Shown one piece after another: positions 16,306 to 58,695 of a stretch of DNA of 64,000 bases; the stretch's first letter is position 1; every line of letters begins with the position of its first letter. This stretch comes from a bacterium (GTDB taxonomy: Bacteria > Patescibacteriota > Minisyncoccia > 2-02-FULL-40-12 > IGHO2-01-FULL-4-A), in assembly GCA_030698885.1 (NCBI GenBank), contig JAUYLN010000020.1, forward strand, positions 7,346-71,345. The letters run 5' to 3'. The position numbers and the translations under genes are program-made. A model generated the notes under the pieces. The model ran no database searches and was not told the origin of the DNA. It was given only the letters and a program-made list of their open reading frames with translations.

Positions 16306-16307
16306 TC

Positions 16308-17795: not shown

Positions 17796-17798
17796 GAT

Positions 17799-24570: not shown

Positions 24571-24622
24571 GCCGTAAAGCCGTAAAGCTCTATGGCCGTA
24601 AAGCTCTATGGTCTCATAGCTT
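24551..24622. repeat. Short tandem-repeat block (GCCGTAAAGC / AAGCTCTATGGC family) upstream of the sugar-transferase gene
   Basis: gtaaagccgtaaagctgtaagccgtaaagccgtaaagctctatggccgtaaagctctatggtctcatagc. Confidence 0.6.
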
Positions 24623-35251: not shown

Positions 35252-35332
35252 TCTACTAATTACTAATTTCATACTAATATACTAATCTATTTCTTATTCG
35301 TATATTAGTGATTTTATTAGTAATTGGTAGAT
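35252..35332 (+). repeat. Intergenic nested-palindrome element, copy M (upstream of the ftsB-like gene)
   Basis: TCTACTAATTACTAATTTCATACTAATATAC...GTATATTAGTGATTTTATTAGTAATTGGTAGAT. Confidence 0.8.
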
Positions 35333-35357
35333 AAACGATAAGTTTCATTATATCCTT

Positions 35358-38546: not shown

Positions 38547-38625
38547 GCCCAAAATAGATCATTTGACCCGCTTCCCGCCTTCTGCTATTATGTAGACAGG
38601 CTTAGGGCCTTTATTTTATTCTTAG

Positions 38626-38706
38626 TCTACCAATTACGAATTTTGTACTAATATACTAATAGAATTTAAATTCGTATATTAGTGATTTAATTAGTAATTA
38701 GTAGAT
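38626..38706 (+). repeat. Intergenic nested-palindrome element, copy N (upstream of rpsL)
   Basis: TCTACCAATTACGAATTTTGTACTAATATAC...GTATATTAGTGATTTAATTAGTAATTAGTAGAT. Confidence 0.85.
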
Positions 38707-38709
38707 AAT

Positions 38710-39120
38710 ATGCCGACTTTTAACCAATTAATGAAACACCCAAGAAGGGTAGCAAAAGCGAAGGATACTTCGCCTGCTTTGTCATTTAGCTTCAACACCA
38801 TACACAACAGACCGACATACAGTCCGGCTCCGTTTAAAAGAGGAGTCGTAACTCAGGTTAGAACTGTAACTCCGAAAAAGCCTAACTCCGCCTTGAGAAA
38901 AGTTGCCCGTATAAGGCTGACAAACGGTATGGAAGTAACAGCGTATATTCCGGGCGAAGGCCACAATATTCAGGAACATGCTGTAGTGATGATAAGAGGC
39001 GGAAGAGTAAAGGATTTGCCGGGTGTCAGGTATCACATTGTCCGAGGCAGATTAGATGCTGCCGGAGTTGAGAAGCGAAGGCAACAGCGTTCTAAGTACG
39101 GCGCCAAGCGCCCCAAATAA
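38710..39120 (+). CDS. rpsL: 30S ribosomal protein S12
   Basis: S12 homology (...[11 protein letters not shown]...). Confidence 0.95.
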
Positions 39121-39201
39121 TCTACCAATTACTAATCGGGTACTAATGTACGAATAAAATCAGGATTAGTATATTAGTGATTTAATTAGTAATTAGTAGA
39201 T
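39121..39201 (+). repeat. Intergenic nested-palindrome element, copy O (rpsL->rpsG)
   Basis: TCTACCAATTACTAATCGGGTACTAATGTACG...GATTAGTATATTAGTGATTTAATTAGTAATTAGTAGAT. Confidence 0.85.
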
Positions 39202-39206
39202 AATAT

Positions 39207-41787: not shown

Positions 41788-41815
41788 TCGCTCGTGCATA
41801 CTATCAACTTTTAAA

Positions 41816-41878
41816 GGTACGACACATCCGCCTGCTGGCGGATTGTCTTTTGTTCGCGCCGTCGCGCTCCACAGAACC
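41816..41878. repeat. Second copy of the GGTACGACA...CGCCTGCTGGCG... repeat (first copy at 12475-12537)
   Basis: Near-identical to the copy downstream of rplB. Confidence 0.6.
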
Positions 41879-41920
41879 TTTAAAAATTAATAGTATGCCA
41901 CTCGCTTGGGGTGGAGGGAT

Positions 41921-41980
41921 AAAATTACAATTTATTTACAACCGCTCGCTCAAATAAATTAAAAACTATGGCTGGCCTCG
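41921..41980. repeat. Solo copy of the MITE terminal repeat (AAAATTACAATTTATTTACAACCGCTCGCTCAAATAAATTAAAAACTATGGCTGGCCTCG)
   Basis: ~90% identical to TIR-R at 34833-34891. Confidence 0.6.
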
Positions 41981-42969: not shown

Positions 42970-43971
42970 ATGAATGAATTCCGACAAGATATAGTTTCCG
43001 GGGAGTGGGTGCTTTTTGCGCCTGATCGTGCTAAGCGTGGCATCAGGGTTTTGCAATGCGAAGAATTGAACAGAGATAAAGAAAAATGCCCCTTTGAAGA
43101 TTTAGAAGGTAACGGCAATACGGTTCTTAAAACATACGACTGGGACGGTTGGGACGGTTGGTTTGCAAAGGTTATAAATAATAAATATCCCGCTGTTGCG
43201 AGAAACTGTATTGACGAAGAGGCGGAAATTAAAAAAATTGGCCCCTTCAGAAGCACCGAGGCCCGGGGTGCGCACGAGGTAATAGTTTACGGCAATCACG
43301 ACAAACTGATGATGGAGTTTGATGAGAAAGAAATGGCCCAAGTATTCAGGATATATAAAGACCGTTATGAAGTTATAACCAAAGAATGTGCCAGTGAATT
43401 TATTCTGATATTTAATAATCACGGTTCAAAAGCCGGAGGCTCCCTATATCATCCCCATTCACAGATAATATCAACCCCCGTTATGCCACCGGATGTTGAA
43501 GCGAGCGTTAAGGGTTCGGAAAGATATTATATGGAATATAAGGAGAAGGTTTATGATGCCATGATTAGGTACGAGATGCAGGAGGGTAAGAGAATAATAG
43601 CGGAAAATGATGATTTTGTGGCATTCTGTCCTTTTGCTTCCAAGACTCCTTACGAGATGAGGGTTTTTCCAAAAGAGGATGGCGCGCACTTCAATGATAT
43701 ATCTGAAAATAATATCATTAATCTGGGCGATATAGTCAGTAAGATACTAAAAAAAATGGATAAAGTTTTAAAGAGGCCGGACTATAATTTTTTCATTCAC
43801 ACTTCGCCCTTGCATCGCCGCTGGGAAAAGCCCGAATATTTTTATACATGGCATATAGAGATATTGCCCAAGATATCTTTAGTCGGCGGTTTTGAAATAG
43901 GTAGTGGCATTTATGTGAATGTCATTGATCCGGATGATGCCGCAAGGCAGATGCGAGACGCTGAAATATAA
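42970..43971 (+). CDS. Galactose-1-phosphate uridylyltransferase-like (GalT/HIT superfamily)
   Basis: An N-terminal Cys/His cluster and ...GSLYHPHSQI..., an HxHxQ nucleotidyl-transfer motif. Confidence 0.6.
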   Translation: MNEFRQDIVSGEWVLFAPDRAKRGIRVLQCEELNRDKEKCPFEDLEGNGNTVLKTYDWDGWDGWFAKVINNKYPAVARNCIDEEAEIKKIGPFRSTEARGAHEVIVYGNHDKLMMEFDEKEMAQVFRIYKDRYEVITKECASEFILIFNNHGSKAGGSLYHPHSQIISTPVMPPDVEASVKGSERYYMEYKEKVYDAMIRYEMQEGKRIIAENDDFVAFCPFASKTPYEMRVFPKEDGAHFNDISENNIINLGDIVSKILKKMDKVLKRPDYNFFIHTSPLHRRWEKPEYFYTWHIEILPKISLVGGFEIGSGIYVNVIDPDDAARQMRDAEI

Positions 43972-44033
43972 TCTACTAATTACTCGTATGTTCCTTATTA
44001 GTATATTGGTGATTTTATTGGTAATTAGTAGAT
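43972..44033 (+). repeat. Intergenic nested-palindrome element, copy Q (galT-like->tpiA), short form
   Basis: TCTACTAATTACTCGTATG...TTAGTATATTGGTGATTTTATTGGTAATTAGTAGAT. Confidence 0.8.
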
Positions 44034-44037
44034 TTAC

Positions 44038-44799
44038 ATGAAAAAACTAATCATCGCAAACTGGAAAGATAACCCTGCAACCGCCAAAGAGGCGGAAGAG
44101 CTTTTTTATTTTTACTATGATGCCTATTCGGAATTAAGAGATAAGATAGACCTAGTCGTTTGCCCGCCAGCAGTCTATATTCAGGAGTTGGCTGCAATAT
44201 CAAAGAGCATGCCTCTGGGCGCCCAGGATGTGTCCTGGGAGAGTTCGGTGGGTCCTCATACCGGAGAAATTACTGCTGATGTTTTGAAAAATTTAGGCGT
44301 GGAGTACGTTTTGGTCGGACATTCAGAGCGCAGATACGGCATAGGCGAGAGCGATGAGGTTATAAGCAAAAAACTAAAGGCAGCCCTTTCTGCCGGATTA
44401 ACCCCGGTGCTTATCGTAGGAGAAAGGAATAATCAGGATGACCGTAAAAAAATAATTGAAGAGCAGTTAGCGATTGACCTGGATGCCCTGGATCCGGAAA
44501 GCGTATCAAAGATTATTCTGGCTTATGAGCCGGTGTGGGCTATCAGTACAAGCCAAGATGGTCATCCGGACACACCCCAAAACGCATTTGATGCACTTGG
44601 CGAAATTAAGAATTTCGTCTTTGAAACTTACCGGGTCAGGCCGGATGCGTATAGGTCCGTTTATGGCGGAAGCATTACCGAAGGCAATGTAGCTGCTTTT
44701 CTGGGTCATGATGAAATAAATGGCGCCCTGATAGGAGGAGCAAGCCTTCGCAAAGAAGAGTTCTCCAGTATTTTAAAGATAGTCAGCGAGCTTAAATGA
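44038..44799 (+). CDS. tpiA: Triosephosphate isomerase
   Basis: ...VLVGHSERR... and the TIM barrel motifs. Confidence 0.9.
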   Translation: MKKLIIANWKDNPATAKEAEELFYFYYDAYSELRDKIDLVVCPPAVYIQELAAISKSMPLGAQDVSWESSVGPHTGEITADVLKNLGVEYVLVGHSERRYGIGESDEVISKKLKAALSAGLTPVLIVGERNNQDDRKKIIEEQLAIDLDALDPESVSKIILAYEPVWAISTSQDGHPDTPQNAFDALGEIKNFVFETYRVRPDAYRSVYGGSITEGNVAAFLGHDEINGALIGGASLRKEEFSSILKIVSELK

Positions 44800-46553: not shown

Positions 46554-46557
46554 ATAA

Positions 46558-46639
46558 TCTACCAATTACGAATTAAATCACTAATATACGAATGAGAAGT
46601 CTTGATTAGTATATTGGTATAAAATTAGTAATTAGTAGG
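46558..46639 (+). repeat. Intergenic nested-palindrome element, copy R (rnhA->DoxX)
   Basis: TCTACCAATTACGAATTAAATCACTAATATACG...GATTAGTATATTGGTATAAAATTAGTAATTAGTAGG. Confidence 0.85.
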
Positions 46640-47172: not shown

Positions 47173-47577
47173 ATGGGCATGACTAGAAAAACCTTTTTAG
47201 TGGCGATAATTTCAGCTCCGGTCATTGCTATTAAGTCTTTAATGGCACAGCCGTTCTCAATAAATAACTCAAGGAAAATTGGTTCGGTATCCTATATTTC
47301 TAATGAAGATTTTATTGGAAAATATTACAAAGAGCTTGGGTATCCGCCCAAAGGCATGCTCAGGATTATTTGCGGAGATATGGTTAGCTGGCTTATGGTA
47401 TGGGTAAAGGGTGATTATGGAAATCTTGAAAATGCCAAAAAAGCTGCCGACGAATGCTGTTGTTTTGATACTAGCGGCAGCATGTACTGGGCCAGTGTGT
47501 ATGATCACAAGGGTCGTAGAATATATCAAGGGGCAAACAGAAGAAAGGCAAACAGAAGAAATACTAGTTTGGCCTGA
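47173..47577 (+). CDS. Hypothetical secreted protein (signal peptide, CCC motif)
   Basis: Monocistronic unit with its own promoter, SD and terminator. Confidence 0.4.
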   Translation: MGMTRKTFLVAIISAPVIAIKSLMAQPFSINNSRKIGSVSYISNEDFIGKYYKELGYPPKGMLRIICGDMVSWLMVWVKGDYGNLENAKKAADECCCFDTSGSMYWASVYDHKGRRIYQGANRRKANRRNTSLA

Positions 47578-47589: not shown

Positions 47590-47616
47590 CCCCGCACCTT
47601 TCAACGGCGCGGGTTT
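47590..47616 (+). terminator. Terminator hairpin (cccgcacc-tttcaac-ggcgcggg + T-run)
   Basis: Stem-loop followed by tttttaatt. Confidence 0.5.
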
Positions 47617-47636
47617 TTAATTGCCGTGAGATAACA

Positions 47637-47662
47637 TTCTCACATTCTTAAGAATGTGAGAA
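47637..47662. promoter_or_regulatory. Perfect 26-bp palindrome TTCTCACATTCTTAAGAATGTGAGAA, a candidate dimeric transcription-factor operator
   Basis: Seen directly; it lies in the convergent gap between ORF 47173 and the sortase gene. Confidence 0.45.
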
Positions 47663-47821
47663 CGAAAGATTCTTTTATCTTTAATTTGCGTGTCTGCCCG
47701 CCTCTGGAGGGAATAGGCGAATAAAGTAAGTTGTGGCTAGGGATAGCCTATAACTAACTTGTTTAGTTAAATTCGAGGTTCCGATAAATCATATAAAATA
47801 ATTCTAACTATATAACATAAC

Positions 47822-47879
47822 AACACAGCAAAAGACATCCTTAAAAACTTGAGAATTTAAGGATGTCTTTTGCTGTGTT
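47822..47879. terminator. Long perfect inverted repeat (24-bp stem) acting as a bidirectional terminator downstream of the sortase
   Basis: aacacagcaaaagacatccttaaa ... tttaaggatgtcttttgctgtgtt. Confidence 0.6.
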
Positions 47880-47937
47880 TAGGGGCGCTAGGGACGAGAG
47901 ACCTTGGATAAGTATATAATTTAGCAAGTAAATTATA

Positions 47938-48588
47938 TTAGATGCGTTCGGCGATTATGATGAGACGCTGTTTAGATGTGAAAAGAGGGGAGCAGGTGAT
48001 TAAGGTGAGCCGGGGTGAGTCGGTGGGATTTAGAACGGAAAGGTCGGTAGGTTCAACGACTTTGCTTTCTATGACCCGGTATCGGTAAGTTGCTCCCTGC
48101 CATGAAAGCTCAAACTCTTCGCCCACCGTCAGTTTGTCCAGATTATAAAAAGTATTGCCGATTGGGGGTAGGAATTTAAAGCGATGGCCGAAAATGACAG
48201 TATTGCCTCCCTTGTCGGGAGTTGAAGTATGCGGGAACATCCATCCGCCCTTGGCGAGGGTTCTGACGCTATCGCTTAAGAATATGGGCATATTAATTCC
48301 AATTTGAGGTATAGAGAGGCGATTATTAATATTCTTAAGTTCATAGTCCGGCACTGGAGTGGCCGTGTTTGACGCGGGAGTCGGAGCTATTTCTTGGCCG
48401 GGTACTACGAACTGGTCGTTTATGGTTATGGCAGAGTTTATCTCCTGTTCTGAAAGCGTATCCAAAAAAGCATAGTCATCCAAAAAGCCAAACGAAAGCA
48501 GGGGAATACCGATTCCAAGCAGAGACAAGGTTATTAGCACGAACCCCAGTTTTTTATATATTTTATGTTGGTCTGTATTTTTAGGCAC
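47938..48588 (-). CDS. Sortase-family transpeptidase (GTG start)
   Basis: An N-terminal TM anchor and ...RLTLITCSP..., the TLxTC active-site motif with the catalytic Cys. Confidence 0.75.
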   Translation of the reverse strand: MPKNTDQHKIYKKLGFVLITLSLLGIGIPLLSFGFLDDYAFLDTLSEQEINSAITINDQFVVPGQEIAPTPASNTATPVPDYELKNINNRLSIPQIGINMPIFLSDSVRTLAKGGWMFPHTSTPDKGGNTVIFGHRFKFLPPIGNTFYNLDKLTVGEEFELSWQGATYRYRVIESKVVEPTDLSVLNPTDSPRLTLITCSPLFTSKQRLIIIAERI

Positions 48589-48595
48589 TTATTAG

Positions 48596-48624
48596 AGTAT
48601 TAAGTAGTAAGTATAAAGTATAAG
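48596..48624. repeat. Variant of the pilin-associated repeat (AGTATTAAGTAGTAAGTATAAAGTATAAG) directly upstream of the sortase start
   Basis: It shares AGTATTAAG...GTAGTAAGTAT with the repeats at 54428, 55990, 56487, 58163 and 58664. Confidence 0.55.
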
Positions 48625-48650
48625 AACGTAAAAACTAAATCTATTATAAC

Positions 48651-48679
48651 AAATAAAGAGCGCATTGCGCTCTTTATTT
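48651..48679 (-). terminator. Terminator hairpin aaataaagagcgc-attg-gcgctctttattt after the surface-protein gene (minus strand)
   Basis: Perfect stem with flanking T/A runs. Confidence 0.6.
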
Positions 48680-48691
48680 GTTGAACCTGTT

Positions 48692-48718
48692 CCTTAATAC
48701 TTAACCCTTACTACTTAT
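48692..48718. repeat. Inverted variant of the pilin-associated repeat (CCTTAATACTTAACCCTTACTACTTAT) overlapping the surface-protein stop codon
   Basis: Reverse complement: ATAAGTAGTAAGGGTTAAGTATTAAGG. Confidence 0.55.
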
Positions 48719-49962
48719 TTATTCAGCCACACATTTGCCTTCTTTGGCATAAGCTCGTAGCCGAACATTAATGAGAGCAAGCCGGTCATAAAGAATGAAA
48801 TCATAAGCGATAAGAATATTCTGTCAAAACCGGTTAATGATACATCCGGAAGCTGGTCCATCTCGCCAAGTACAGCCGGGGTCGGAGTTGCTGGCGGGGT
48901 TGCTGTTGGGGTGGGAGATACGGTTTCAGCTCCAAGGACTGCCGAAGAGTTGGTTGTCGGGAAGAATCCGCCTCCACCTCCACCGCCTCCACCACCTCCA
49001 TTGGGCGTCGGGGTTGGGGTAGGAGTTGCAGATGGGGTAGGGGTTGGAGTGGGAGATGTCTGTGTGTTATTTAAACCAAAGTGTGCATTTATGGTTTGAT
49101 GGCTTGTTACGGTAAAAGTACAAACCGGATTTGTAGGATCGCTGACGCAGGGGCCAGAAGTCCAAGAGCCATCAAAGTTGGATCCTTCGTCAGGAGTGGC
49201 GTTCAAAGTAACTTCTGTTCCTTCTTCATATGTCTCTGAACAGTCGCTTTCCTCTGAATTGCTGTCGCAATTTATTAATTCATCTTCGTCATTAATAACG
49301 CCATCACCATCTCCGCTAGTTGTAATATCTACTGTGTAAGTTGGCGTCGGGGTTGGGGTAGGGGTATCACTTGGAGTTGGTGATGGAGTCGGAGTGTCAG
49401 AAGGAGTAGGGCTTGGGGTCGGTGTGTCTGAGGGGCTGGGGGTAGGAGTCGGTGTATTACTTGGGGCTGGCGTCGGGGTTGGTGTCGGGTCTACATCAAC
49501 GCAGATAGTTACAGAAGAAACTGCGTCTGCCTGATTGTCCTGTCCTGGTACTGTTTGATGATAAATACGAGCTGTAATAGTAAAAGGACCATCCGTAAGA
49601 TAGGTGTGAGTTGCACCGAAAGAACGTGTTTCTGTTCCGTGGTCTGGGTTTTGATTTAAACTAAATGTACTTGCCTCAGTTTGGTCATTAGTATTGCCAT
49701 CTCCCCAATCTATTTGTACGTGATATTGGCCAAGTTGACCCTGGGGGGCTGTTGCAGTTGCCGTTCCCGAGACTGTTACTTCACCACCGATGTTGCAATC
49801 GTCACCGCTAATAGGACTAGTGATATTAACTGAAGTTGCCGCAAATACACTAAACGGTATGGCCTGCAATGTCATGGACATTACGAATGTTAATATGAAA
49901 AAACTGGCCAAAAACTTTGGCCTACGACCTGTTGAGAAAAATCCTATATTGCTATTTTTCAT
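48715..49962 (-). CDS. Secreted cell-surface protein with Pro/Thr linker repeats, a Gly11 run and a C-terminal hydrophobic anchor plus KK tail. It is a candidate sortase substrate.
   Basis: Signal peptide; (TPTPSPSDTP)n; GGGGGGGGGGG; C-terminus ...LPDVSLTG...hydrophobic...PKK. Confidence 0.6.
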   Translation of the reverse strand: MKNSNIGFFSTGRRPKFLASFFILTFVMSMTLQAIPFSVFAATSVNITSPISGDDCNIGGEVTVSGTATATAPQGQLGQYHVQIDWGDGNTNDQTEASTFSLNQNPDHGTETRSFGATHTYLTDGPFTITARIYHQTVPGQDNQADAVSSVTICVDVDPTPTPTPAPSNTPTPTPSPSDTPTPSPTPSDTPTPSPTPSDTPTPTPTPTYTVDITTSGDGDGVINDEDELINCDSNSEESDCSETYEEGTEVTLNATPDEGSNFDGSWTSGPCVSDPTNPVCTFTVTSHQTINAHFGLNNTQTSPTPTPTPSATPTPTPTPNGGGGGGGGGGGFFPTTNSSAVLGAETVSPTPTATPPATPTPAVLGEMDQLPDVSLTGFDRIFLSLMISFFMTGLLSLMFGYELMPKKANVWLNK

Positions 49963-50348
49963 GAATTTTCGCCCTTTTCTTGCCTTTTTGGCCCGAAACA
50001 GGGGAAGTTATTTAAAGTTATTATTATTTTAACAGAATATAATCATATTGTCAAATTAATGCGCCCGGATACGTATTTGACAGTTTCTTCATTAAATCAT
50101 CACGGTGACGGTATCATATAACGCCTATATACTTTGGTTTAGTATAAAACCACTTTATTCCATCATGATGACTAATCATTAATAATAGATGAAGATTATC
50201 CACGGAGCAACAAGGTTTATCAAGGTTTGACTTTCTTCATGAAGAGTGTATATTTCTATGATTCCCTCAACTTTTAAAAACCAATATTAATTGGCTCATT
50301 TAGCAACAAAGAGTTAGCTGAAGGGCATTATGTTGGAGAAAAATACAA

Positions 50349-52799
50349 ATGAATAAGTACATTGCGGTTTGTCTGCTTGCGGGCGTGTTGGTTTTGGGTG
50401 GTATAAGTTTGGCTTATGGCGAGTCTTCACCAACCTTAACTACAGATAAAGATGATTATTTGATAGGAGAGACTGCCACTATCTCCGGCCTGTCATTTAA
50501 CCCATCAGAGAATTTTAATATTAAAGTATATGGGGGAAGCGATGCTGATGGAACTTACACCGAAACAAATGATGTCGTTGCAAGCGATGAAAATGGCAAA
50601 TTTATTTATTCATATACTCTTGATTTAGTTTACAGGCCCTTATATGTGGTTGCGGTCAGTGATTTAAATGGTGTTGAATTGGCAAGAACCACATTCACTG
50701 ATGCACCACCCGCAGTAAGCCTTGAACAATGTAGAAATGGAGCGGTGGGGACACCTAATAATTGTGAAGATCTAGGCGGTGGAAGCGGCTGGGTTTCCGG
50801 TAATGTTGGAGCCTCGCAGGGGCATTACTTAGAAGGACACTCCATTCCATATAGGGCAGTTTTAACAAACCTTCCGGTTAATACGCCAATAACTCTAACT
50901 CTGGGATATGATATAAAACATAGCGGTGCTCATGCTATAGACTATTTGACTCATTTTGATCGTCTTGATCCACATACCCAGTTCAGTCATTCTGCCGAAA
51001 GTGTAAATCCGACTGATGGTGTTTCGGGATTTTCTGCAACCACAACGACCTTTACTGTTCTGGCGCCTGATACTATAAATTCTCCGGTTTTTGGGCAACC
51101 AGCTACAAGCTTCAATGCATTACTTGCTGGCGAGAGGGTTATGACATTATTTGGAGGAACTATTTCTGGCATCTCGTATGATACTGATGGTGATTTAACT
51201 GCTGCACAATCTGAAACTAGGATTACCGTTACATTTAGTGTTGATGATTCTACTGCAGTTCTCGCATGGGGTGGCCATATAGCTACCCAAGAAGATTGGG
51301 GCGTTGGTCAATCTGCAGGAGGAATTAGCGGTTCTCCTTACCATATGCGTTTAATTGACTGGAATTTAAATAATCTCGGCAACACAGATCGCTCTCTTTC
51401 TGCGGCAGTAATTCTTGTTCCCCAACAGGCCACACTTACTCTTTTGAAGGATGTAGTTAATGACAATGGCGGAACAGCTTTGGATACTGCCTGGACTCTT
51501 TCCGCAAACGGTCCTACTCCGGTTTCCGGAGTTGAAGGCGATGTAGCAGTTACAGATGCTTTAGTTGATGCCGGAGAATATACTCTTTCAGAATCAAGCG
51601 GCCCTTCAGGTTATACTGCTTCTTCATATAGTTGTGTTGTGAATGGCGAAAATCCCGTTGTCGGTAATTCATTAACTCTTGCTCCTGAAGATGTCGCAGT
51701 TTGTACTATCACCAATGATGACGATGCCCCTTCCCTTACTTTGGTAAAGGAAGTTGTTAATGATAACGGTGGAACCGCAGTGGCAGGCGACTGGACACTT
51801 ACTGCGACCGGCTACGATTCAGTTTCTCCTGATGCAGGCACTTATGACCTTTCAGAATCAGGCCCTGACAATTACACTCAGACCTCTTTGACCTGCGATA
51901 ATGCCGAAGGACAGGTTACTTCAGTAACTCTCGGTCTTGGTGAGGATGTCACCTGCACATTTGTAAATGATGATCAGCCTGCTAAGTTGACTATAATAAA
52001 AGATTCAGATCCGAATGATACCCAGGATTTCAATTTCTCGGGTACATTAGGCGCATTCGTATTGGATAATGATGAAGGAGTGCAGGATGTAGAGGATAGT
52101 GCCACTCCAGACAGAAAGACATTTGATGACTTATCAGCAAACCAAGTTTATACCGTAACCGAAGGACCGCAGCCAAGCACATATTGGACATTTGTCGGGG
52201 TTAGCTGTGTGGATACAAATACTCAAGAAGTATATCCGGCAACCGTTGATGGCCAGAGCATATCAGTTGAGCTTGTTTTAGATGGAGACGTTACCTGCAC
52301 ATTCGTAAATCATAAAGACAGCCCATCCAGAACTCTTGGTTTCTGGAAGACACATACTGAATATACGACCAGTATATTTGAGAATCAGCTGGGGAGCAGC
52401 ATAACCTTGGGTGATGGAGGAGAGCACCAGGATGTGATTGCTTCACCGTCCGCATTATTCGGTGCGTGGTATTCAAACGTTTCACAGAAATCAATTGGTA
52501 AAGGCAAGAATGCACGAAGATCCACGGTTGACCAGGCCAGAATGCAGTTGGCATGGCAGTGGTTGGCGGCAAAACTAAACTGTGCGGCATTCGGATGCCC
52601 AAGTGATGTGCAGACGTTGCTTAGTGATGCCAGCACGGTTTACGCAGTAGGTGATGTAGGCGCAATGCTTAACTATGCCGGTCAGCTTGATATCTTTAAT
52701 AATGCCAGCGACTCAATCGTTATAGATGGTGATGTTGGCAAGGCAACTCCGAAATTATCACAGACTCTCGCAGATCTTCTGTTCTGGGACACACCATAA
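50349..52799 (+). CDS. Large secreted protein with three tandem beta-sandwich-like repeats (LTL[V/L]K[E/D]VVNDNGGTA...)
   Basis: Signal peptide; repeated ~100-aa units seen in the translation; no obvious C-terminal sorting signal. Confidence 0.6.
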   Translation: MNKYIAVCLLAGVLVLGGISLAYGESSPTLTTDKDDYLIGETATISGLSFNPSENFNIKVYGGSDADGTYTETNDVVASDENGKFIYSYTLDLVYRPLYVVAVSDLNGVELARTTFTDAPPAVSLEQCRNGAVGTPNNCEDLGGGSGWVSGNVGASQGHYLEGHSIPYRAVLTNLPVNTPITLTLGYDIKHSGAHAIDYLTHFDRLDPHTQFSHSAESVNPTDGVSGFSATTTTFTVLAPDTINSPVFGQPATSFNALLAGERVMTLFGGTISGISYDTDGDLTAAQSETRITVTFSVDDSTAVLAWGGHIATQEDWGVGQSAGGISGSPYHMRLIDWNLNNLGNTDRSLSAAVILVPQQATLTLLKDVVNDNGGTALDTAWTLSANGPTPVSGVEGDVAVTDALVDAGEYTLSESSGPSGYTASSYSCVVNGENPVVGNSLTLAPEDVAVCTITNDDDAPSLTLVKEVVNDNGGTAVAGDWTLTATGYDSVSPDAGTYDLSESGPDNYTQTSLTCDNAEGQVTSVTLGLGEDVTCTFVNDDQPAKLTIIKDSDPNDTQDFNFSGTLGAFVLDNDEGVQDVEDSATPDRKTFDDLSANQVYTVTEGPQPSTYWTFVGVSCVDTNTQEVYPATVDGQSISVELVLDGDVTCTFVNHKDSPSRTLGFWKTHTEYTTSIFENQLGSSITLGDGGEHQDVIASPSALFGAWYSNVSQKSIGKGKNARRSTVDQARMQLAWQWLAAKLNCAAFGCPSDVQTLLSDASTVYAVGDVGAMLNYAGQLDIFNNASDSIVIDGDVGKATPKLSQTLADLLFWDTP

Positions 52800-52815
52800 T
52801 CTTGTTACTCTAGAT

Positions 52816-52851
52816 CACCAAAAACCGCCCCGAGACGGGCGGTTTTTGGTG
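52816..52851 (+). terminator. Rho-independent terminator (caccaaaaaccgcccg-agac-gggcggtttttggtg)
   Basis: 16-bp perfect stem plus T-run. Confidence 0.7.
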
Positions 52852-53034: not shown

Positions 53035-53197
53035 GAACTTGTCCAAAAACCCTCTTTCGTCGCGAAATTGCAGAATTTTGAGCGAGACACTCCGGCGGAA
53101 AACGAAGCATATCCTTTGATATGGTGAGTTTGAGCCGTTGGGTGTCGCAGCCGAAATTCTGCAATTGCAGCAGAATACGGGGTTTTTGGACAAGTTC
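53035..53197. promoter_or_regulatory. Nested long-range inverted repeats in the pilB leader: GAACTTGTCCAAAAACCC ... GGGTTTTTGGACAAGTTC (outer) and CGAAATTGCAGAATT ... AATTCTGCAATTGCAG (inner)
   Basis: Two perfect or near-perfect inverted-repeat pairs ~130 bp apart, ending 10 nt before the pilB ATG. Confidence 0.5.
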
Positions 53198-53207: not shown

Positions 53208-54425
53208 ATGACCAAAACTAAGTCAGAAAAAGAAATAAAAAAGGGGGCAGAAATATCAGTTATCACACTGGTGGACTCTTTGATTGAAGATGCCCACCAG
53301 GTAAATGCTTCCGATATTCATATTGATGCCGGCGAAAAATCGGCCAGGGTCAGGTTCAGGGTTGATGGCGTTTTACAGGATATGTTTGAATTGCCATTGG
53401 GCCTGATGCCTGAAATTATTTCCAGAATAAAAATATTGACCAACCTAAGAACTGATGAGCACAAGGTTCCGCAGGACGGTCGTTTCAGGCTAGTCATTGA
53501 AAAAATCGGACCGGTTGATGTCAGGGTGGCCATTACCCCGACTTATCACGGTGAAAGCGCCGTTTTGCGTTTATTGTCTTCCGACCAGTCCGGCCAATAT
53601 AGTCTTGAGTCTTTGGGTTTTGAAGAGCATGACAGAGAAAAAATATTGAAAGCCGTTCAGAATCCTTACGGAATGATTTTGGTTACCGGACCGACCGGCT
53701 CAGGTAAAACAACCACTCTTTATACGATATTAAAAATTTTAAATACAAATGATGTTTCAATCATTACGATTGAAGACCCGATTGAATATGCCATTGATAA
53801 TATAAAGCAGGTTCCGGTCAGTGCCAGAACCGGTCTAACCTTTGCCAGCGGTCTGCGCTCCATGTTGAGGCAGGACCCGGACATTATCATGGTGGGTGAG
53901 ATTAGGGATGAGGACACTGCCGGCCTTGCGGTCAATACCGCTTTGACCGGTCACCTTTTACTTTCAACATTGCATACAAATGATGCGGCTACGACTTTGC
54001 CCAGATTGTTAGACATGAAGATAGAGCCATATTTGGCTTCGTCCACTGTTAACGTTGCCATCGGCCAGAGATTGGTCAGAAGGATCTGCGAAGGCTGTAA
54101 GGTTCAGAAAAATATTACCGAAACTGAGTACGAGAGCCTTGTAGAGGTTTTGGGTAAAAACATAGTCGGATCAAGTAAAAAGTTTTATAAAGGTTCAGGT
54201 TGCGATAAATGCAATCTGACCGGTTATCGCGGAAGATTAGTAATAGACGAAGTTATGGTCATTGATGACGAGATAAGGGAGGCTATCTTAAAAAAAGGTT
54301 CTTCAAGCGATATAAAAAATATTGCAATAAAGAATGGCATGACCACGATGATAGAAGACGGAATTAGAAAAGCCGCGAAAGGAATGACGACGATACAGGA
54401 AGTGCTGAGAGTGATACATGAATAA
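53208..54425 (+). CDS. Type IV pilus/type II secretion assembly ATPase (PilB/GspE family, short N-terminus)
   Basis: Walker A GPTGSGKTTTLY, Asp/His boxes and a tetracysteine motif CEGC...CDKC. Start set at MTKTKSEK (the track ORF starts at 53121 inside the inverted repeats). Confidence 0.8.
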   Translation: MTKTKSEKEIKKGAEISVITLVDSLIEDAHQVNASDIHIDAGEKSARVRFRVDGVLQDMFELPLGLMPEIISRIKILTNLRTDEHKVPQDGRFRLVIEKIGPVDVRVAITPTYHGESAVLRLLSSDQSGQYSLESLGFEEHDREKILKAVQNPYGMILVTGPTGSGKTTTLYTILKILNTNDVSIITIEDPIEYAIDNIKQVPVSARTGLTFASGLRSMLRQDPDIIMVGEIRDEDTAGLAVNTALTGHLLLSTLHTNDAATTLPRLLDMKIEPYLASSTVNVAIGQRLVRRICEGCKVQKNITETEYESLVEVLGKNIVGSSKKFYKGSGCDKCNLTGYRGRLVIDEVMVIDDEIREAILKKGSSSDIKNIAIKNGMTTMIEDGIRKAAKGMTTIQEVLRVIHE

Positions 54426-54427
54426 TT

Positions 54428-54460
54428 CTAAGTATTAAGGAATAAGTAGTAAGTATTAAG
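54428..54460 (+). repeat. Pilin-associated repeat (CTAAGTATTAAGGAATAAGTAGTAAGTATTAAGC) directly upstream of the four-helix-bundle gene
   Basis: Same unit as upstream of each pilin gene. The first ~20 nt of the downstream CDS are also conserved. Confidence 0.8.
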
Positions 54461-54461
54461 C

Positions 54462-54842
54462 ATGGATACAAAAACAAAAATTGAAAGCTTTACCGATTTA
54501 AAGGCATGGAAAGAAGGGCATAGGCTTGTCCTGGACGTTTATAAGATTAGCAGGGAGTTTCCCAGAGAAGAGATGTTCGGCTTGGCCAATCAATTAAGGC
54601 GTGCAGTCGTATCAATCACATCAAACTTGGCCGAAGGATTTAGTAGAACATCCTATAAGGACAAGATAAAGTTTTATTCTATATCATTAGGGTCTTTAAC
54701 TGAAGTGCAAAACCAGTTATTGATATCCCGAGACATTAATTATTTGAACAAAGAAAAATTTGATATTTTAGCACAACAAACAATTTTGGTAAGTAAGTTG
54801 GTTAATGGTTTAATTAAAAAATTAAAAACCCTTAATACTTAA
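54462..54842 (+). CDS. Four-helix-bundle protein (TIGR02436 / 23S-rRNA-intervening-sequence-protein family)
   Basis: ...FTDLKAWKEGHRLVLDVYKISREFPREEMFGLANQLRRAVVSITSNLAEGFSR...ISLGSLTEVQNQL... matches the family signature. Confidence 0.6.
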   Translation: MDTKTKIESFTDLKAWKEGHRLVLDVYKISREFPREEMFGLANQLRRAVVSITSNLAEGFSRTSYKDKIKFYSISLGSLTEVQNQLLISRDINYLNKEKFDILAQQTILVSKLVNGLIKKLKTLNT

Positions 54843-54867: not shown

Positions 54868-55989
54868 ATGAGCTTCATTAAATCAAACAACCCAACATTT
54901 AATAAGGAAATTTCATTTAGCTTGCCTAAGTGGATGCCTTTCGGCAGATTGTCGGTCAAAGACCAGGCGGTTTTTGCCAAGAGATTATCGTTTTTGATAA
55001 AGGCCGGCGTGCCGATATTGGACGGCATCAGGATGTTAAACAAGCAGACTAAGTCCGGTTCCAAAAAGAGGATATTGGAGCAGGTTTTAAGCGACGTTTC
55101 ACAGGGCCAGCTTTTGTCCGCCAGCTTTGCCAAATCCCAGAAAGTATTCGGCGAATTCGGCATTAGCATGATAAAAGTCGGTGAAGAGGGCGGTATTTTG
55201 GATGAAAACCTGAGCTATCTTGCCGAAGAGTTGAGAAAGAGCCATCGCTTGAGGAAAAAGATAAAAGGCGCGTTGGCCTATCCGGCTTTTGTTACTTTTG
55301 CTACTATCGGCATAACCGGTTTTATAACCGCTTTTATATTCCCTAAAATTTTGCCTATTTTTGCTAATTTTGGAGCCGAACTTCCGGTAACAACCAAGGC
55401 CCTCATAATTATAAGCACATTTCTTCTTCATTATGGCCTAGCGCTTTTAGCTGGCCTTTTTGTCTTATCTATTTTTCTATACGGAGTGTATCTTAAGGCG
55501 GGGCCATTCAGGATGACTGTGGACAGAGGCGTTCTCTCTTTGCCGATATTCGGCAAAATGATTAAAGATTACCAGATGGCAAGTTTTTGCCGAACTTTTG
55601 GGCTGCTTCTAAAGAGCCAGCTGGATGTTGTTAAGGCAACTCAGATTACAGCTCACACGCTTTCAAATCATGTTTATCAAAGAGAAATTAAGGCCCTCTC
55701 GGTTAACATTACAAAGGGTAAAAATATCGCTGAGTACATAAGCCAGAATCCTTATTTGTTTCCGGAAATGGTTTTACAGACCTTATCGGTCGGCGAATCA
55801 ACCGGTCATTTAAGCGACAGCTTGCTTTATCTTTCCGATTATTACGAGAACGAAGTTGAAGAAACAACCAGGAATTTATCAAGCACTCTTGAGCCGGCCC
55901 TGATGGTAGTCATGGGTGTCGTGGTTGGATTCGTGGCTTTAGCTGTTATCACTCCGATTTATCAGATAACTCAAAATATTCATCCGTAA
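54868..55989 (+). CDS. Type IV pilus/type II secretion platform protein (PilC/GspF family)
   Basis: Three TM segments with two GspF-like cytoplasmic domains. Confidence 0.8.
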   Translation: MSFIKSNNPTFNKEISFSLPKWMPFGRLSVKDQAVFAKRLSFLIKAGVPILDGIRMLNKQTKSGSKKRILEQVLSDVSQGQLLSASFAKSQKVFGEFGISMIKVGEEGGILDENLSYLAEELRKSHRLRKKIKGALAYPAFVTFATIGITGFITAFIFPKILPIFANFGAELPVTTKALIIISTFLLHYGLALLAGLFVLSIFLYGVYLKAGPFRMTVDRGVLSLPIFGKMIKDYQMASFCRTFGLLLKSQLDVVKATQITAHTLSNHVYQREIKALSVNITKGKNIAEYISQNPYLFPEMVLQTLSVGESTGHLSDSLLYLSDYYENEVEETTRNLSSTLEPALMVVMGVVVGFVALAVITPIYQITQNIHP

Positions 55990-56023
55990 CTAAGTATTAA
56001 GGGATAAATAGTAAGTATTAAGC
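55990..56023 (+). repeat. Pilin-associated repeat (CTAAGTATTAAGGGATAAATAGTAAGTATTAAGC)
   Basis: It starts right after the pilC stop and ends at the pilin ATG. Confidence 0.8.
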
Positions 56024-56485
56024 ATGAATACAAAAACAAAAAACAATCAGTGGGGGTTCACTGCCGTAGAGGTTTTAATGGTTATTGGAATTTTTTCGCT
56101 TCTGGCCGGCCTGGGTCTTTTTATCAGTATGGATTTCTACAGAAGTTATTCTTTCAGGTCTGACAGGGATATGACCATCAGTATTCTGGAAAGAGCCAGA
56201 GCTCAGTCTTTGGCCAATATTAATGAATCGGCCCACGGTGTTCGCTTTGATTCCGGTTCATCCAAGTTAATATTATTTCAGGGTAATTCATATGATGACA
56301 GAGACACCTCGCTTGACCAGGAAATATCTTTAAATTCAGGCATAGCAGTAACCGGCATAAATGAGGTTGTGTTTGAACAACTGACGGGTAATGCAGTATA
56401 TTCTGGAGCCGGAAATATGATTTTAAGCTACGGAGCCCAAACCGCGACGATATCATTTAATGGAGAGGGGAGGATAAATTACTAG
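56024..56485 (+). CDS. Type IV prepilin/pseudopilin (class III signal MNTKTKNNQWG|FTAVE)
   Basis: Leader ending in Gly, mature N-terminus F-x-x-x-E5 followed by a hydrophobic helix. Confidence 0.7.
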   Translation: MNTKTKNNQWGFTAVEVLMVIGIFSLLAGLGLFISMDFYRSYSFRSDRDMTISILERARAQSLANINESAHGVRFDSGSSKLILFQGNSYDDRDTSLDQEISLNSGIAVTGINEVVFEQLTGNAVYSGAGNMILSYGAQTATISFNGEGRINY

Positions 56486-56486
56486 C

Positions 56487-56518
56487 AAGTATTAAGGGAT
56501 AAGTAGTAAGTATTAAGC
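56487..56518 (+). repeat. Pilin-associated repeat (CAAGTATTAAGGGATAAGTAGTAAGTATTAAGC)
   Basis: Located between the stop of pilin 1 and the ATG of the next gene. Confidence 0.8.
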
Positions 56519-58171
56519 ATGAATACAAAAATAAAAAACAATCAGAGGGGGTTCATCCCGCACCTTTCTGGCAATTGCCTTCGGCATAACAGGCCTCTTT
56601 GCGGCGTTTGCCAAAAAGGTGCGGGATTCAGCACTATTGAGATAGTGCTGGCTTTTGCGATAATCATTGTCGTGCTGTCGGCTATAATTTTAGTTGTGTT
56701 CGGCAATCAGACTGTTGCCGTGGATAATGAGATAAATAACGAGGCATTGTACAAAGCGAAAGAAATTGTTGAGACGGCCCGTGCTGATGCCAAGGAGGAT
56801 TTTTATGGTTTAGCCGGGAGTACCTCTCTTGATGATATTTACACAAAAGTTCTAGGTATATCTGATATTAATCTTTGCAAAAAAAGCATTACCGGAACGG
56901 TTTCATGGCAGACTGAACCTGACAGGCCTCTTGAAATATCTATCAACAGCGAAGTCTCAAGTATTTTTGACGCCCTTGCCCTGGGTGGCGACTGCGGTTC
57001 TGATACCCCCCCGATAAGCGAGTGGTGGTTTCCGAGGACATTTAAGGATTATGACCTAAAGACAATAGAGCCTCCGGCAGAACAGTCGGGGAATGCTGGT
57101 GTTCCGGCAACAAGTATTGATGTCGTTAAGCAGGGGGGCAGTAAATACGCAGTCTTAAGTACCGCACATAATTCAGAAAATGATATCTGGATAATTAATG
57201 TTGACGATAGTTTAAATGCATTTATAGTGAGTTCGCTTGAAACAGAAAGCGTTGGTCTTAATACTGCGGATGTGGCAGGAGGCCTTGCTTATGCCTTAAG
57301 CGTAGGTTCACCCACGACACAACCTTCCGAATTACAAATTATAGATATAAGTACAGTTAGCGCGCCCGCACTCTTGGCTACCAAGTCTTTGGATATTTTC
57401 GGTGCAGATGCCGAGAATTCACCGAATGCAAATACTATTTATTACTTTGACGAAAAAATATATGTCGGTACGCATAAAACAGGAGGCAAAGAATTTCAGA
57501 TTTTTAGTGGTGTTGCACCATATGAGAAGGTTGCAGAGCTAGAGATAAACCACAACATTAATGACATAGTTGTCAGGGGTGATTATGCCTATTTGGCTAC
57601 ATCGGATGATGGCTATGCAATAAATGGTGGGGCAGGTGAGCTTATGGTTGTTAACATAAATCCGTTAAGCCCAGAAGAATATATGGTTCACCCTGATGTA
57701 ACTGGCATGTGGTACGATGCCACCAAGGGTTTTGACGCTATAAGTCTTTATTTGCTAGGCAATAAGATTTATTTAGGCAGGCAGGGCGGTAATTATGTTA
57801 AAACAGAAGCGTTCAATTTTATGATATTAGACATAACTGACCCGCATGCAATCACGGAGCTTGGTTCAAAATTTATTCCTACTAACGAATCACCAAATAA
57901 GGCCGCGGGGATTAAGGATTTTCAAATAGTGAGCGATTTTGCATTTATTGCAACAGATGTAGATAACTTGGACTTTCAGGTTTATAGAGTAAGCGATCCA
58001 ACTAATATTCTAAATTGCAGTGAGCTGACTCCTCCTCCTGCGTCTAACTGTGGTAAATATGATTTTCCGGCAAAAATGGTAGATCTCGAATTTAGCGATA
58101 ACCTCATTTATGCAGCCATTGAAAGTAATGCAACTTTCAGGATAATTTTTGATGATATAACCAAGTATTAA
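56519..58171 (+). CDS. Large (550-aa) pilin-like protein, a putative tip or minor pilin. It has an unusually long leader containing two G|F junctions and an in-frame 13-bp-stem hairpin.
   Basis: MNTKIKNNQRG-FIPHL...QKGAG|FSTIEIVLAF: the second junction has E5 and a hydrophobic helix. The C-terminal ~450 aa form a globular domain. Confidence 0.6.
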   Translation: MNTKIKNNQRGFIPHLSGNCLRHNRPLCGVCQKGAGFSTIEIVLAFAIIIVVLSAIILVVFGNQTVAVDNEINNEALYKAKEIVETARADAKEDFYGLAGSTSLDDIYTKVLGISDINLCKKSITGTVSWQTEPDRPLEISINSEVSSIFDALALGGDCGSDTPPISEWWFPRTFKDYDLKTIEPPAEQSGNAGVPATSIDVVKQGGSKYAVLSTAHNSENDIWIINVDDSLNAFIVSSLETESVGLNTADVAGGLAYALSVGSPTTQPSELQIIDISTVSAPALLATKSLDIFGADAENSPNANTIYYFDEKIYVGTHKTGGKEFQIFSGVAPYEKVAELEINHNINDIVVRGDYAYLATSDDGYAINGGAGELMVVNINPLSPEEYMVHPDVTGMWYDATKGFDAISLYLLGNKIYLGRQGGNYVKTEAFNFMILDITDPHAITELGSKFIPTNESPNKAAGIKDFQIVSDFAFIATDVDNLDFQVYRVSDPTNILNCSELTPPPASNCGKYDFPAKMVDLEFSDNLIYAAIESNATFRIIFDDITKY

Positions 58172-58194
58172 GGGATAAGTAGTAAGTATTAAGC
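58163..58194 (+). repeat. Pilin-associated repeat (CAAGTATTAAGGGATAAGTAGTAAGTATTAAGC)
   Basis: Immediately upstream of the pilin ATG at 58195. Confidence 0.8.
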
Positions 58195-58665
58195 ATGAAT
58201 ACAAAAAGAAAAAACAATCAGAGGGGATTCACTTTGGTGGAGGTGCTCATCTACACGGTTTTAATTATGTTTATACTTGGCGGAATGCTTTTGGCCGTCT
58301 ATAACATTGTTGAAGGAAGTACGGCCCTTGGCCAGGATGTGATTATTCAAGAAGAGGCAAATTTTCTGCTTCGTAAAATTGAGTGGGCATTGAGCGGGGC
58401 CAGCGATATCAATACTCCGAATTCAGGAAATAGCGGGAATGTGCTTTCGGTTGATAAAGATTTAAACACCATACAGTTTAATCTTGATTCAGGTAATTTA
58501 AGGATTGATAAGGGGAGCGGTCCGATAATACTAAACAGCGAGTATGTTACGGTTTCCAGTTTGAGCTTTGAGCATATTCCCGCAAGCGGAACCGGTCCAG
58601 CAGCGGTTCGTGCCGAATTTTATGTTGACGATAAATACTTCAATTTAACGAAGTACCTTCGTTAA
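58195..58665 (+). CDS. Type IV prepilin/pseudopilin (MNTKRKNNQRG|FTLVE)
   Basis: Class III signal with E5 and a hydrophobic N-terminal helix. Confidence 0.7.
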   Translation: MNTKRKNNQRGFTLVEVLIYTVLIMFILGGMLLAVYNIVEGSTALGQDVIIQEEANFLLRKIEWALSGASDINTPNSGNSGNVLSVDKDLNTIQFNLDSGNLRIDKGSGPIILNSEYVTVSSLSFEHIPASGTGPAAVRAEFYVDDKYFNLTKYLR

Positions 58666-58695
58666 GTATTAAGGGATAAGTAGCAAGTATTAAGC
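58664..58695 (+). repeat. Pilin-associated repeat (TAAGTATTAAGGGATAAGTAGCAAGTATTAAGC)
   Basis: Overlaps the stop of pilin 3 and ends at the ATG of pilin 4. Confidence 0.8.

Follow-up and report, generated by a model that had tools for sequence, protein, structure and literature searches.

What does a perfect palindrome do beside a bacterial sortase gene, and does it have anything to do with that gene? The question is raised by a 64,000-nt stretch of a patescibacterial genome (GenBank assembly GCA_030698885.1, contig JAUYLN010000020.1, positions 7,346 to 71,345; hereafter the window, meaning the whole of this stretch), in which a 26-bp perfect palindrome lies near the genes for a sortase, a Pro/Thr-rich 415-aa protein and an 816-aa repeat protein. 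A previous interpretation made from the letters alone (the sequence-only reading) had treated these as one locus, with the palindrome as a likely binding site for a dimeric regulator and an implied link between palindrome and sortase. We hold with moderate confidence that two unrelated things stand side by side here: a sortase cassette, and a solitary copy of a widespread palindromic element that would be the cognate site of a small winged helix-turn-helix protein (wHTH) and is an orphan in this genome segment.

The palindrome, TTCTCACATTCTTAAGAATGTGAGAA at 47637-47662, is present as described, occurs once in the window, and has no match in 100 shuffles of the window even with up to three mismatches allowed. 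Comparison with copies in other genomes corrects the conserved unit to 32 bp (47634-47665), which we term PAL; the window copy agrees with the 32-bp consensus at 30 positions, the two deviations falling at the right edge (ACGA instead of ATGT), and its core is laid out as a 12-2-12 inverted repeat (TTCTCACATTCT TA AGAATGTGAGAA). A 12-2-12 inverted repeat is the classical operator layout of the ArsR/SmtB repressors. The location is another matter. PAL lies 60 bp past the stop codon of a 134-aa open reading frame (ORF; 47173-47577), beyond that ORF's own terminator-like hairpin, and 276 bp past the sortase stop codon, from which a perfect 24-bp-stem hairpin separates it, such that both neighbouring genes point at it with convergent 3' ends. 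No -10 box (at least 5/6 matches, within 12 nt) is found on either side of it, tblastn detects no wHTH homologue in the 64-kb window, and 10 other sortase loci totalling ~100 kb contain no PAL copy at up to seven mismatches. Lacking a promoter, an adjacent gene start and a regulator gene, the window copy is an orphan site, and because PAL is missing from the other sortase loci while the wHTH and the -10 box are missing here, its adjacency to the sortase is best considered coincidental; the implied palindrome-sortase link is therefore given up. The idea of a dimeric-regulator site fares better in its general form, in that PAL resembles such a site and is linked elsewhere to an ArsR/SmtB-fold protein, but not as an operator of this locus. 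Judged from its letters and its setting, the window copy is probably a regulator-type binding site without a local partner.

At the level of structure, the window copy folds into an 11-13-bp stem within a gap that is full of hairpins (fold z = -9.6 for the whole convergent gap). The stem of PAL has ~35% G+C and in the window is followed by CGAAAGATT, that is, by CGAAAG and no T-run; a scan with an intrinsic-terminator consensus does not call it. Neither the palindrome nor the two intergenic gaps have an Rfam match at gathering or E-value thresholds, the lone weak signal being a sub-threshold match of RmaA to the hairpin spacer between sortase and substrate genes (32.8 vs 57). Small ORFs of 22-28 aa in the convergent gap were considered and rejected for want of support. 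Overall, we read the window copy as a solitary, slightly eroded PAL without a partner, in a convergent gap rich in hairpins. The 134-aa ORF on its left has a signal-like N-terminus and an ECCCFD motif, matches no Pfam or NCBIfam family, and is replaced by other small genes in a syntenic relative.

The case for a conserved element comes from a scan of one genome per species (596 Gb) for the core pattern TCTCACATTC-N4-GAATGTGAGA, which has 20 fixed bases. At least 133 copies were found in at least 120 stretches, as compared with ~0.5-1 expected at uniform composition, and they yield a 32-bp consensus, ACATTCTCACATTCT-NN-AGAATGTGAGAATGT, that can be written as four heptamers (ACATTCT-C-ACATTCT NN AGAATGT-G-AGAATGT), with TG/CA, TA, GC or CG at the centre. 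Whether the palindrome is conserved in relatives had been posed as a check on the sequence-only reading, and conservation proves to reach far beyond them: among the matches listed most are from Patescibacteria of many classes, and others from Planctomycetota, Verrucomicrobiota, Bacteroidales, Clostridia, Gammaproteobacteria and the metagenome-assembled genome of a Pacearchaeota member, a DPANN archaeon. In Planctomycetota at least four copies share one 5.97-Mb scaffold, and the PAL-bearing loci have 61-69% GC. Flanking sequences are unrelated between loci; an origin in assembly artefact or contamination was rejected, since the flanks differ at every locus and the assemblies come from many studies and include scaffolds of 69% GC. 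No copy is present in 2.9 million viral contigs, 72,556 PLSDB plasmids or 50,697 INPHARED phages, and we accordingly also rejected PAL as phage or plasmid DNA. A literature search returned no paper with PAL 14-mers (the 11-mer matches are eukaryotic primers), and a search joining Patescibacteria with palindromic or ArsR terms returned no description of such an element.

Most solo copies stand between genes. Among those listed, 59 lie in tandem, 26 in convergent and 11 in divergent gaps, with 23 within long ORFs. The 97 genes whose starts face PAL are a heterogeneous set of accessory and repair functions (among others NUDIX 6, GNAT 5, YgjP 4, HhH-GPD 3, Vsr-like 3, GIY-YIG 2, Fic 2); across ~200 loci, no transposase, integrase or other recombinase recurs beside PAL, and sortase is never among the recurrent neighbour families. 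Past the conserved ATGT the outward flanks are T-rich, with 60% T at +7 and 46% at +8. Two general roles were tried and rejected: that of a fixed promoter, with PAL as a -35 box and a -10 box 16-19 nt away (31 of 268 sides vs 39 of 480 controls), and that of supplying its neighbours with start or stop codons (frames 53/48/40 for starts, 50/36/44 for ends).

One protein stands out among the neighbours. When all ORFs within 3 kb of PAL copies were clustered, the sole strongly recurrent one was a wHTH of ~90 aa, found at 20 loci and matching the Pfam families HTH_5, HTH_20 and MarR. Its gene is bracketed by PAL, one copy lying upstream and the other over the last five codons and the stop codon, such that the left arm is read as ACA TTC TCA CAT TCT TAA/TGA and forms the C-terminus T-F-S-H-S-stop of the protein; only the wHTH uses this T-F-S-H-S-stop reading of PAL. 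Illustrative loci, given here by our locus handles, are L118 (7591-7950), L161 (2376-6063) and L157 (1390-3316). The main C-terminal form is TFSHS-stop (L127-L206), with the variants TF-stop, encoded by ACATTCTGA and ACATTCTAA, and TFQHS, encoded by ACATTCCAACATTCT; TFQHS is also the end, within PAL, of an unrelated 80-aa gene in L157.

To avoid circularity, a second sample was picked by the wHTH protein alone (the best 80 of 573 metagenome relatives), and PAL was called at up to 5 mismatches out of 30. In these protein-picked loci, PAL covers the wHTH stop codon in 69 of 79 and lies within 150 bp upstream of the gene in 51 of 75, both copies being present in 47 of 74. The upstream copy is followed on its gene-facing side by a -10 box (at least 5/6, within 12 nt) in 31 of 54 cases, as compared with 3 of 54 on its far side and 7 of 48 at other PAL copies. 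A -10 box just past the 5' copy would place PAL in the -35/spacer region of the wHTH promoter, which is the geometry of an autorepressor.

The predicted fold of the wHTH points the same way. The AlphaFold model (pLDDT 90.6) shows the alpha1-alpha2-alpha3-alphaR-beta-beta-alpha5 winged-helix fold of ArsR/SmtB proteins, and Foldseek aligns it with CadC, SmtB and CzrA at TM scores of 0.77-0.81; by sequence, the closest PDB entries are HlyU (3jth, 5znx, 4k2e; the best), CadC, ArsR and CzrA. The proteins score below the NCBIfam HTH_metalloreg cutoff (38.6 and 49.1 bits vs 55), and their alignments contain none of the canonical metal sites (no alpha3N CxC, no alpha5 D/H/H/E, no conserved Cys pair). 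The family comprises 6351 clusters whose names go no further than 'winged helix-turn-helix', and as far as literature and databases show the PAL/wHTH pair is undescribed.

PAL nonetheless has features beyond those of a simple protein-binding site. In 60 of 131 copies (vs 13.6 expected) the arms go on pairing perfectly for at least 6 nt past the 24-nt core pattern, and in the protein-picked set arm covariation is 0.167, as compared with 0.130 in shuffles (0 of 500 reach the observed value) and 0.085-0.146 with slid partners. Arms that are complementary past the conserved letters indicate that PAL is also selected as, or generated as, a hairpin or cruciform. An origin of this covariation in lineage-specific preferences of the protein was rejected, as a single contig can carry more than one symmetric variant (L008, L109). 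Copies at the same locus resemble each other: 68% of same-locus pairs have a common centre dinucleotide vs 27% of pairs between loci, and 43 of 57 same-locus pairs have the same orientation. Around the wHTH gene, successive gaps carry PAL and thereby bracket single small genes in PAL-gene-PAL units, with arrays of five copies in 3.7 kb in L161 and four copies each in L127 and L157. Finally, a 957-bp block with 91% identity is found in L063 (1343-2299) and L109 (3017-3925), in contexts that are otherwise unrelated, and its left edge is PAL; it is possibly the trace of a PAL-bounded segment transfer, the single such footprint seen among the few close relatives compared. Together, the symmetry and the arrays suggest a potential to form hairpins or cruciforms and perhaps a copy-and-paste mode of spread.

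The sortase cassette can be understood on its own terms. As the sequence-only reading had proposed, the protein is a TLxTC sortase (TLITC), matching Pfam Sortase (PF04203) at 93.5 bits vs a cutoff of 26.6 and NCBIfam sortase_fam at 78.4 vs 39.35. The catalytic residues on which that reading had staked the assignment are in place: H135, C199 and R208 are invariant across 22 homologues and align with the residues of class C sortases, which also supply the best PDB matches; as judged from this alignment, the sortase is catalytically intact. Scores against the class-specific models, namely 84.5/160 for class C, 70.3/140 for SrtD, 68/160 for class E, 64/165 for class D and 29/166 for class F (score/cutoff), all fall short, which leaves the GenBank label 'class D sortase' unsupported. 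The closest named homologues are from Candidatus Yanofskybacteria, one relative locus (L002) has the same gene order (TIM-PGK-RNaseH...sortase...PilB-Avd-like-PilC), and the cassette appears typical of Paceibacteria/Yanofskybacteria-like members of the candidate phyla radiation (CPR). Literature on CPR bacteria together with sortase or LPXTG mentions the presence of a sortase gene in CPR genomes only in passing.

Directly upstream of the sortase gene lies that for the 415-aa protein, in which the sequence-only reading had pointed out Pro/Thr linkers and a non-canonical candidate motif. No LPXTG pentapeptide and no match to an NCBIfam LPXTG-anchor model is found in this protein. It consists, in order, of a lineage-specific signal peptide, an N-terminal PKD-like domain (called from motif only), a PT linker, an InlB B-repeat (239-297), a second PT linker, a poly-Gly plus FFP stretch, VLG, the pentapeptide LPDVS, a transmembrane segment and a PKK (KK...K) tail; read directly from the sequence, its N-terminus has RRPKFLASFFILTFVMSMTLQA and its C-terminal hydrophobic segment with positive tail reads ...DRIFLSLMISFFMTGLLSLMFGYELMPKKANVWLNK. 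The motif was placed by comparison with nine sortase-adjacent substrates in six relative loci (L002, L004, L005, L207, L209, L211), of which eight directly precede the sortase gene, on its strand, and one follows it. Here the aligned position is LPxTG in six of the nine (LPDTG twice, LPNTG twice, LPETG and LPVTG), LPETS in one and LPDTD in one. The relatives' substrates have in common a K.KF..GFF.L.F signal, Pro/Thr linkers, poly-Gly followed by F(F)P, and VLG before the motif, then D/E-R, a hydrophobic helix, G-Y and an (L/I)PK tail after it, and the window protein aligns with them throughout. Because LPDVS stands at the position that LPxTG occupies in these orthologous neighbours, the 415-aa protein, the only one in the window with such a sorting signal, is a probable sortase substrate, and the non-canonical motif picked out in the sequence-only reading proves to be correct. 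By the same comparison, the sorting signal of this clade would be LPxTG with tolerated variants at P1/P1' plus clade-specific flanking positions. Two proteins encoded downstream of relatives' sortases deserve mention: a VWA-domain protein with an LPDTG signal (L209 5679-7397), and a protein of 477 aa that contains VLGA motifs and a transmembrane segment and lacks LPxTG (L004 8711-10144).

The 816-aa protein is a neighbour of a different kind. Structure prediction bears out the three tandem beta-sandwiches that had been read from its sequence: the AlphaFold model (pLDDT 82) places them at residues 360-458, 462-542 and 545-656, in the region matched by Pfam SpaA_2/SpaA_4 (within residues 359-656), and adds two N-terminal beta domains and an all-helical C-terminal domain of ~150 aa. 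Its structural neighbours are the Bacillus anthracis TIE adhesin and the pilins Spy0128 and BcpA, and its 1635 homologues are mostly bigger multi-domain proteins. A signal peptide is present, and the C-terminus, which ends in ...LADLLFWDTP, has neither LPXTG nor a hydrophobic tail; in the syntenic relative L002, LemA and TPM genes occupy the place of the 816-aa gene. For both reasons we take the protein to be a neighbour and not a client of the sortase. The earlier picture of two secreted repeat proteins beside a sortase is thus right in that both are of secreted type, though the 816-aa protein does not belong to the conserved cassette. Coordinates of all features are collected in Table 1.

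Table 1. Features of the palindrome-sortase region, in window coordinates
Feature	Position	Strand	Basis or remarks
Intrinsic-terminator-like hairpin with T-run	47591-47618	+	Just 3' of the 134-aa ORF 47173-47577; sequence, fold
PAL, orphan copy of the conserved 32-bp palindrome	47634-47665	none	Perfect 26-bp core 47637-47662
Perfect 24-bp-stem hairpin, likely end of the sortase transcript	47822-47879	-	59 nt past the sortase stop codon; sequence, fold
Sortase, 216 aa, with N-terminal membrane anchor, H135, TLITC (C199) and R208	47938-48588	-	Pfam, alignment
Substrate/sortase intergenic element	48595-48716	-	Inverted heptad arms 48595-48618 / 48693-48716 around hairpin 48648-48682
Probable sortase substrate, 415 aa	48715-49962	-	Pfam, alignment to relatives' substrates
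LPDVS codons, aligned with LPxTG of orthologous substrates	48838-48852	-	Alignment
Sigma-70-like promoter TTGACA-17-TAAAAT with TG, upstream of the substrate gene	50026-50054	-	Consensus match only, 11/12
Secreted 816-aa SpaA/Cna-B-like (prealbumin-fold) protein	50349-52799	+	Pfam, AlphaFold
GC-rich bidirectional terminator-like hairpin	52825-52847	none	3' of the 816-aa gene

The gap between substrate and sortase genes has an architecture of its own. The variants of a pilin-associated repeat that the sequence-only reading had noticed at the sortase start and the substrate stop are there, as inverted heptad arms, and between them the 126-bp gap holds a perfect 17-bp-stem hairpin (48648-48682), the gap as a whole folding with a dG of -43 kcal/mol (z -7.6). 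The heptad word AAGTAKT has 20 matches in the window vs 0.83 expected, and the gap exemplifies a genome-wide pattern in which intergenic sequence is assembled from inverted repeats of short words. In a separate occurrence of this word, a ~37-nt AAGTAKT leader, AAGTATTAAGGGATAAGTAGTAAGTATTAAGC, stands directly before the ATG of four pilin-like genes, whose first ~15 codons are also in common, and of an Avd-like gene (54425-54461, 55987-56023, 56482-56518, 58158-58194 and 58659-58695). Between 10263 and 47000, where neighbouring genes run in the same direction, the short gaps that separate them are mostly long imperfect palindromes of repeated words (AATCTACCAATTACTAAT ... ATTAGTAATTAGTAGAT), ordered as stop codon, arm, centre, inverted arm and start codon, with at least 10 copies per family (e.g. 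10263-10338, 13506-13600, 14111-14205, 17709-17797, 35244-35337, 38618-38711, 39113-39206, 43966-44041 and 46554-46629); a third word set, of period 8 (GCCGTAAAGC / GCTCTATGGC), is found at 15712-15784, 16234-16319 and 24547-24632.

Other repeats and genes of the window are recorded here for completeness. An inverted repeat with arms of 56 nt (53035-53090 / 53142-53197; 51-nt spacing, 75% complementarity) lies across the 5' region of a PilB-like gene, whose listed start at 53121 is probably over-extended, the true start likely lying near 53209. Between the genes for this PilB-like ATPase and a PilC-like platform protein, 54462-54842 encodes a 126-aa four-helix protein; the L002 counterpart in the same position has Pfam matches to 23S-rRNA-IVP/bAvd. 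Two dispersed repeats follow genes, a 78-nt pair of 73% identity (12468-12545 / 41809-41886) and a 60-nt pair of 93% identity (34832-34891 / 41921-41980), and may be terminator or small-RNA modules.

How, then, would the two parts work? The conserved signal peptide would direct export of the substrate, which the C-terminal hydrophobic segment and basic tail would retain in the membrane; the sortase would cleave the protein at LPDVS, the equivalent of LPxTG, and join it to the envelope, a course of processing and transpeptidation that is deduced from the family. The 816-aa protein would be secreted independently. PAL, for its part, would most likely be the cognate DNA site of the widespread ~90-aa ArsR/SmtB-fold wHTH, mediating autorepression in other genomes from its place in the protein's own promoter, and there also lying over the wHTH stop codon and marking neighbouring intergenic gaps. 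The window copy would at most add to termination or insulation and would not control the sortase operon.

Several observations weigh against this proposal. On the side of PAL, chromosomal operators are seldom near-identical over 30 bp in different phyla; solo copies lie mostly off promoters, and among the copies listed there is no general enrichment of -10 boxes at a fixed spacing; the symmetric covariation exceeds what protein contacts alone explain; the sharing of centre and orientation within loci looks like copy-and-paste spread and not like independent operator evolution; and the evidence that would pair wHTH with PAL is their co-localisation. On the side of the cassette, none of the NCBIfam class A-F models reaches its cutoff with the sortase, and P1 Thr and P1' Gly are both replaced in LPDVS. 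The last point invites the thought that the sortase has stopped processing the 415-aa protein, which would then be a one-time substrate in decay or put to a new use, with its C-terminal helix keeping it membrane-anchored. Both residues at the scissile bond do differ from the LPxTG of six of nine relatives, and the hairpin-bearing spacer of 126 bp exceeds the ~10-105 bp of relatives. Yet the sortase keeps all invariant residues, the rest of the signal is conserved (D/E-R, the transmembrane segment, G-Y, L/M-P-K), and LPETS and LPDTD sit beside intact sortases in relatives, which suggests a relaxed P1/P1' specificity in the clade; we regard the loss of processing as a tentative alternative, unlikely but deserving to be kept in mind.

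For PAL, the features just listed are those that a mobile or recombination element would have, whether REP-like or a recombination site (13-6-13, centre CTNNAG) that bounds cassettes, with wHTH as an accessory or selfish passenger and the window copy as a solo scar. The PAL-gene-PAL arrays round wHTH, the small and heterogeneous accessory genes that they bracket in the manner of cassette cargo, the genome-specific variants and centre orientation, the near-identity across phyla inclusive of genomes of 69% GC, the many copies between convergent genes and the shared 957-bp block that ends at PAL can all be read in this sense. We nevertheless consider it doubtful, as no recombinase or transposase recurs nearby, copies are missing from the viral, plasmid and phage collections, density is low (one copy in the 64-kb window), the symmetry of the sites sets them apart from the typically asymmetric attC and dif, the 5' copy stands to the -10 box as expected of an operator, and the one block is the single possible footprint of mobility. 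Still somewhat unlikelier, in our estimate, is a composite in which a cross-phylum, cruciform-capable 32-bp PAL delimits cassettes of one gene each and multiplies both inside a genome and from one genome to another, with wHTH as its dedicated recognition factor, a REPtron-like or pdif-like system without a known recombinase of which the window copy would be a solo footprint. That PAL acts mainly in the transcript, as a bidirectional terminator or mRNA-stabilising 3' stem-loop that in the window helps to end convergent transcripts, would fit the many copies within 30 nt of stop codons, the surplus of convergent over divergent gaps (26 vs 11), the T-rich outward flanks, the complementarity of the arms beyond the conserved letters and the stem formed by the window copy amid other hairpins. 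Terminators, however, need no fixed sequence, and ~30 nt are near-invariant across phyla here; the stem is AT-rich and the window copy runs into CGAAAG; copies are also found upstream of genes and in divergent gaps (e.g. L098), and the 5' copy of wHTH is in a promoter; the two variable internal junction positions are unpaired in 24-42% of sites, and Rfam yields no match. A mainly transcript-level role is consequently improbable. Hardly any credence is due to the palindrome as operator of the sortase/surface-protein operon, for which only proximity and dyad symmetry speak: PAL lies downstream of the sortase, past a 24-bp-stem hairpin and between convergent 3' ends, the promoter-like site of the operon is 2.4 kb off at 50026-50054, and neither the 10 orthologous or paralogous sortase loci nor the recurrent neighbours of PAL connect the two. 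An orphan site next to an unrelated cassette remains the reading that we favour.

Much of bacterial diversity falls within the CPR, and to our knowledge almost nothing is known of gene regulation in its members. PAL is a site conserved nearly letter for letter across the CPR and beyond, paired with a family of more than 6000 clusters named only 'winged helix-turn-helix'. If the two are a regulator and its operator, they would define a first regulon that spans the radiation, with small genes for repair and detoxification beside its sites, and could serve as a portable repressor-operator part now that genetic work on Saccharibacteria is emerging; if PAL belongs to a mobile palindrome system, it would mark the edges of gene cassettes in a way that is new. 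The sortase result has a narrower scope, and offers the first comparative evidence for the sorting signal of this CPR sortase clade.

Comparison with known systems places the two parts of the locus in different traditions. The sortase has the fold signature, His-Cys-Arg triad, TLxTC motif and N-terminal anchor of Gram-positive sortases, and its putative substrate the familiar series of signal peptide, motif, helix and basic tail; it differs from classes A-F in reaching no class cutoff, in the LPDVS motif and in the clade-specific VLG, D/E-R and GY..LPK positions. The 816-aa protein resembles SpaA/Cna-B pilins and TIE adhesins in its three prealbumin-fold domains and its structural neighbours, but lacks LPXTG and the pilin-specific sortase arrangement and has a helical C-terminal domain. 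PAL is like the REP/RAYT elements, the pdif sites of Xer systems and integron attC sites in being a short extragenic palindrome, often after stop codons or between convergent genes, with a gene flanked by two copies and single accessory genes bracketed. REPs, however, are species-specific and abundant, whereas PAL is sparsely spread over several phyla; genes for a Y1 transposase, IntI or Xer are not among its recurrent neighbours; and unlike attC and pdif it is symmetric, without extrahelical bases or distinct XerC/XerD arms.

A further parallel is HlyU of Vibrio, which binds a palindrome that is flanked by inverted repeats and overlaps a DNA cruciform, and which attenuates the cruciform (Getz et al. 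2023, PMC10325908). HlyU is the best PDB match of the wHTH by sequence, and PAL too has a fixed core with arms that are complementary beyond it; the HlyU sites, by contrast, are A/T-rich and species-specific and activate virulence genes by relieving H-NS/cruciform repression, while the PAL stem is essentially loopless and its cruciform is predicted from symmetry. With ArsR/SmtB repressors more generally (SmtB, CzrA, CadC), the wHTH has in common the alpha1-alpha5 winged-helix fold, the 12-2-12 layout of the PAL core and a copy over its own promoter; it differs in having no metal-ligand motifs and a sub-cutoff score for HTH_metalloreg, in a site conserved near letter for letter across phyla, in a second copy over the stop codon with more at gene 3' ends, and, in the window, in a site without the cognate gene. 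The PAL/wHTH pair is thus best classed with the ArsR/SmtB repressor-operator theme, of which it would be an unusual variation distinguished by cross-phylum near-identity, stop-codon overlap, cruciform-like symmetry and cassette-like arrays.

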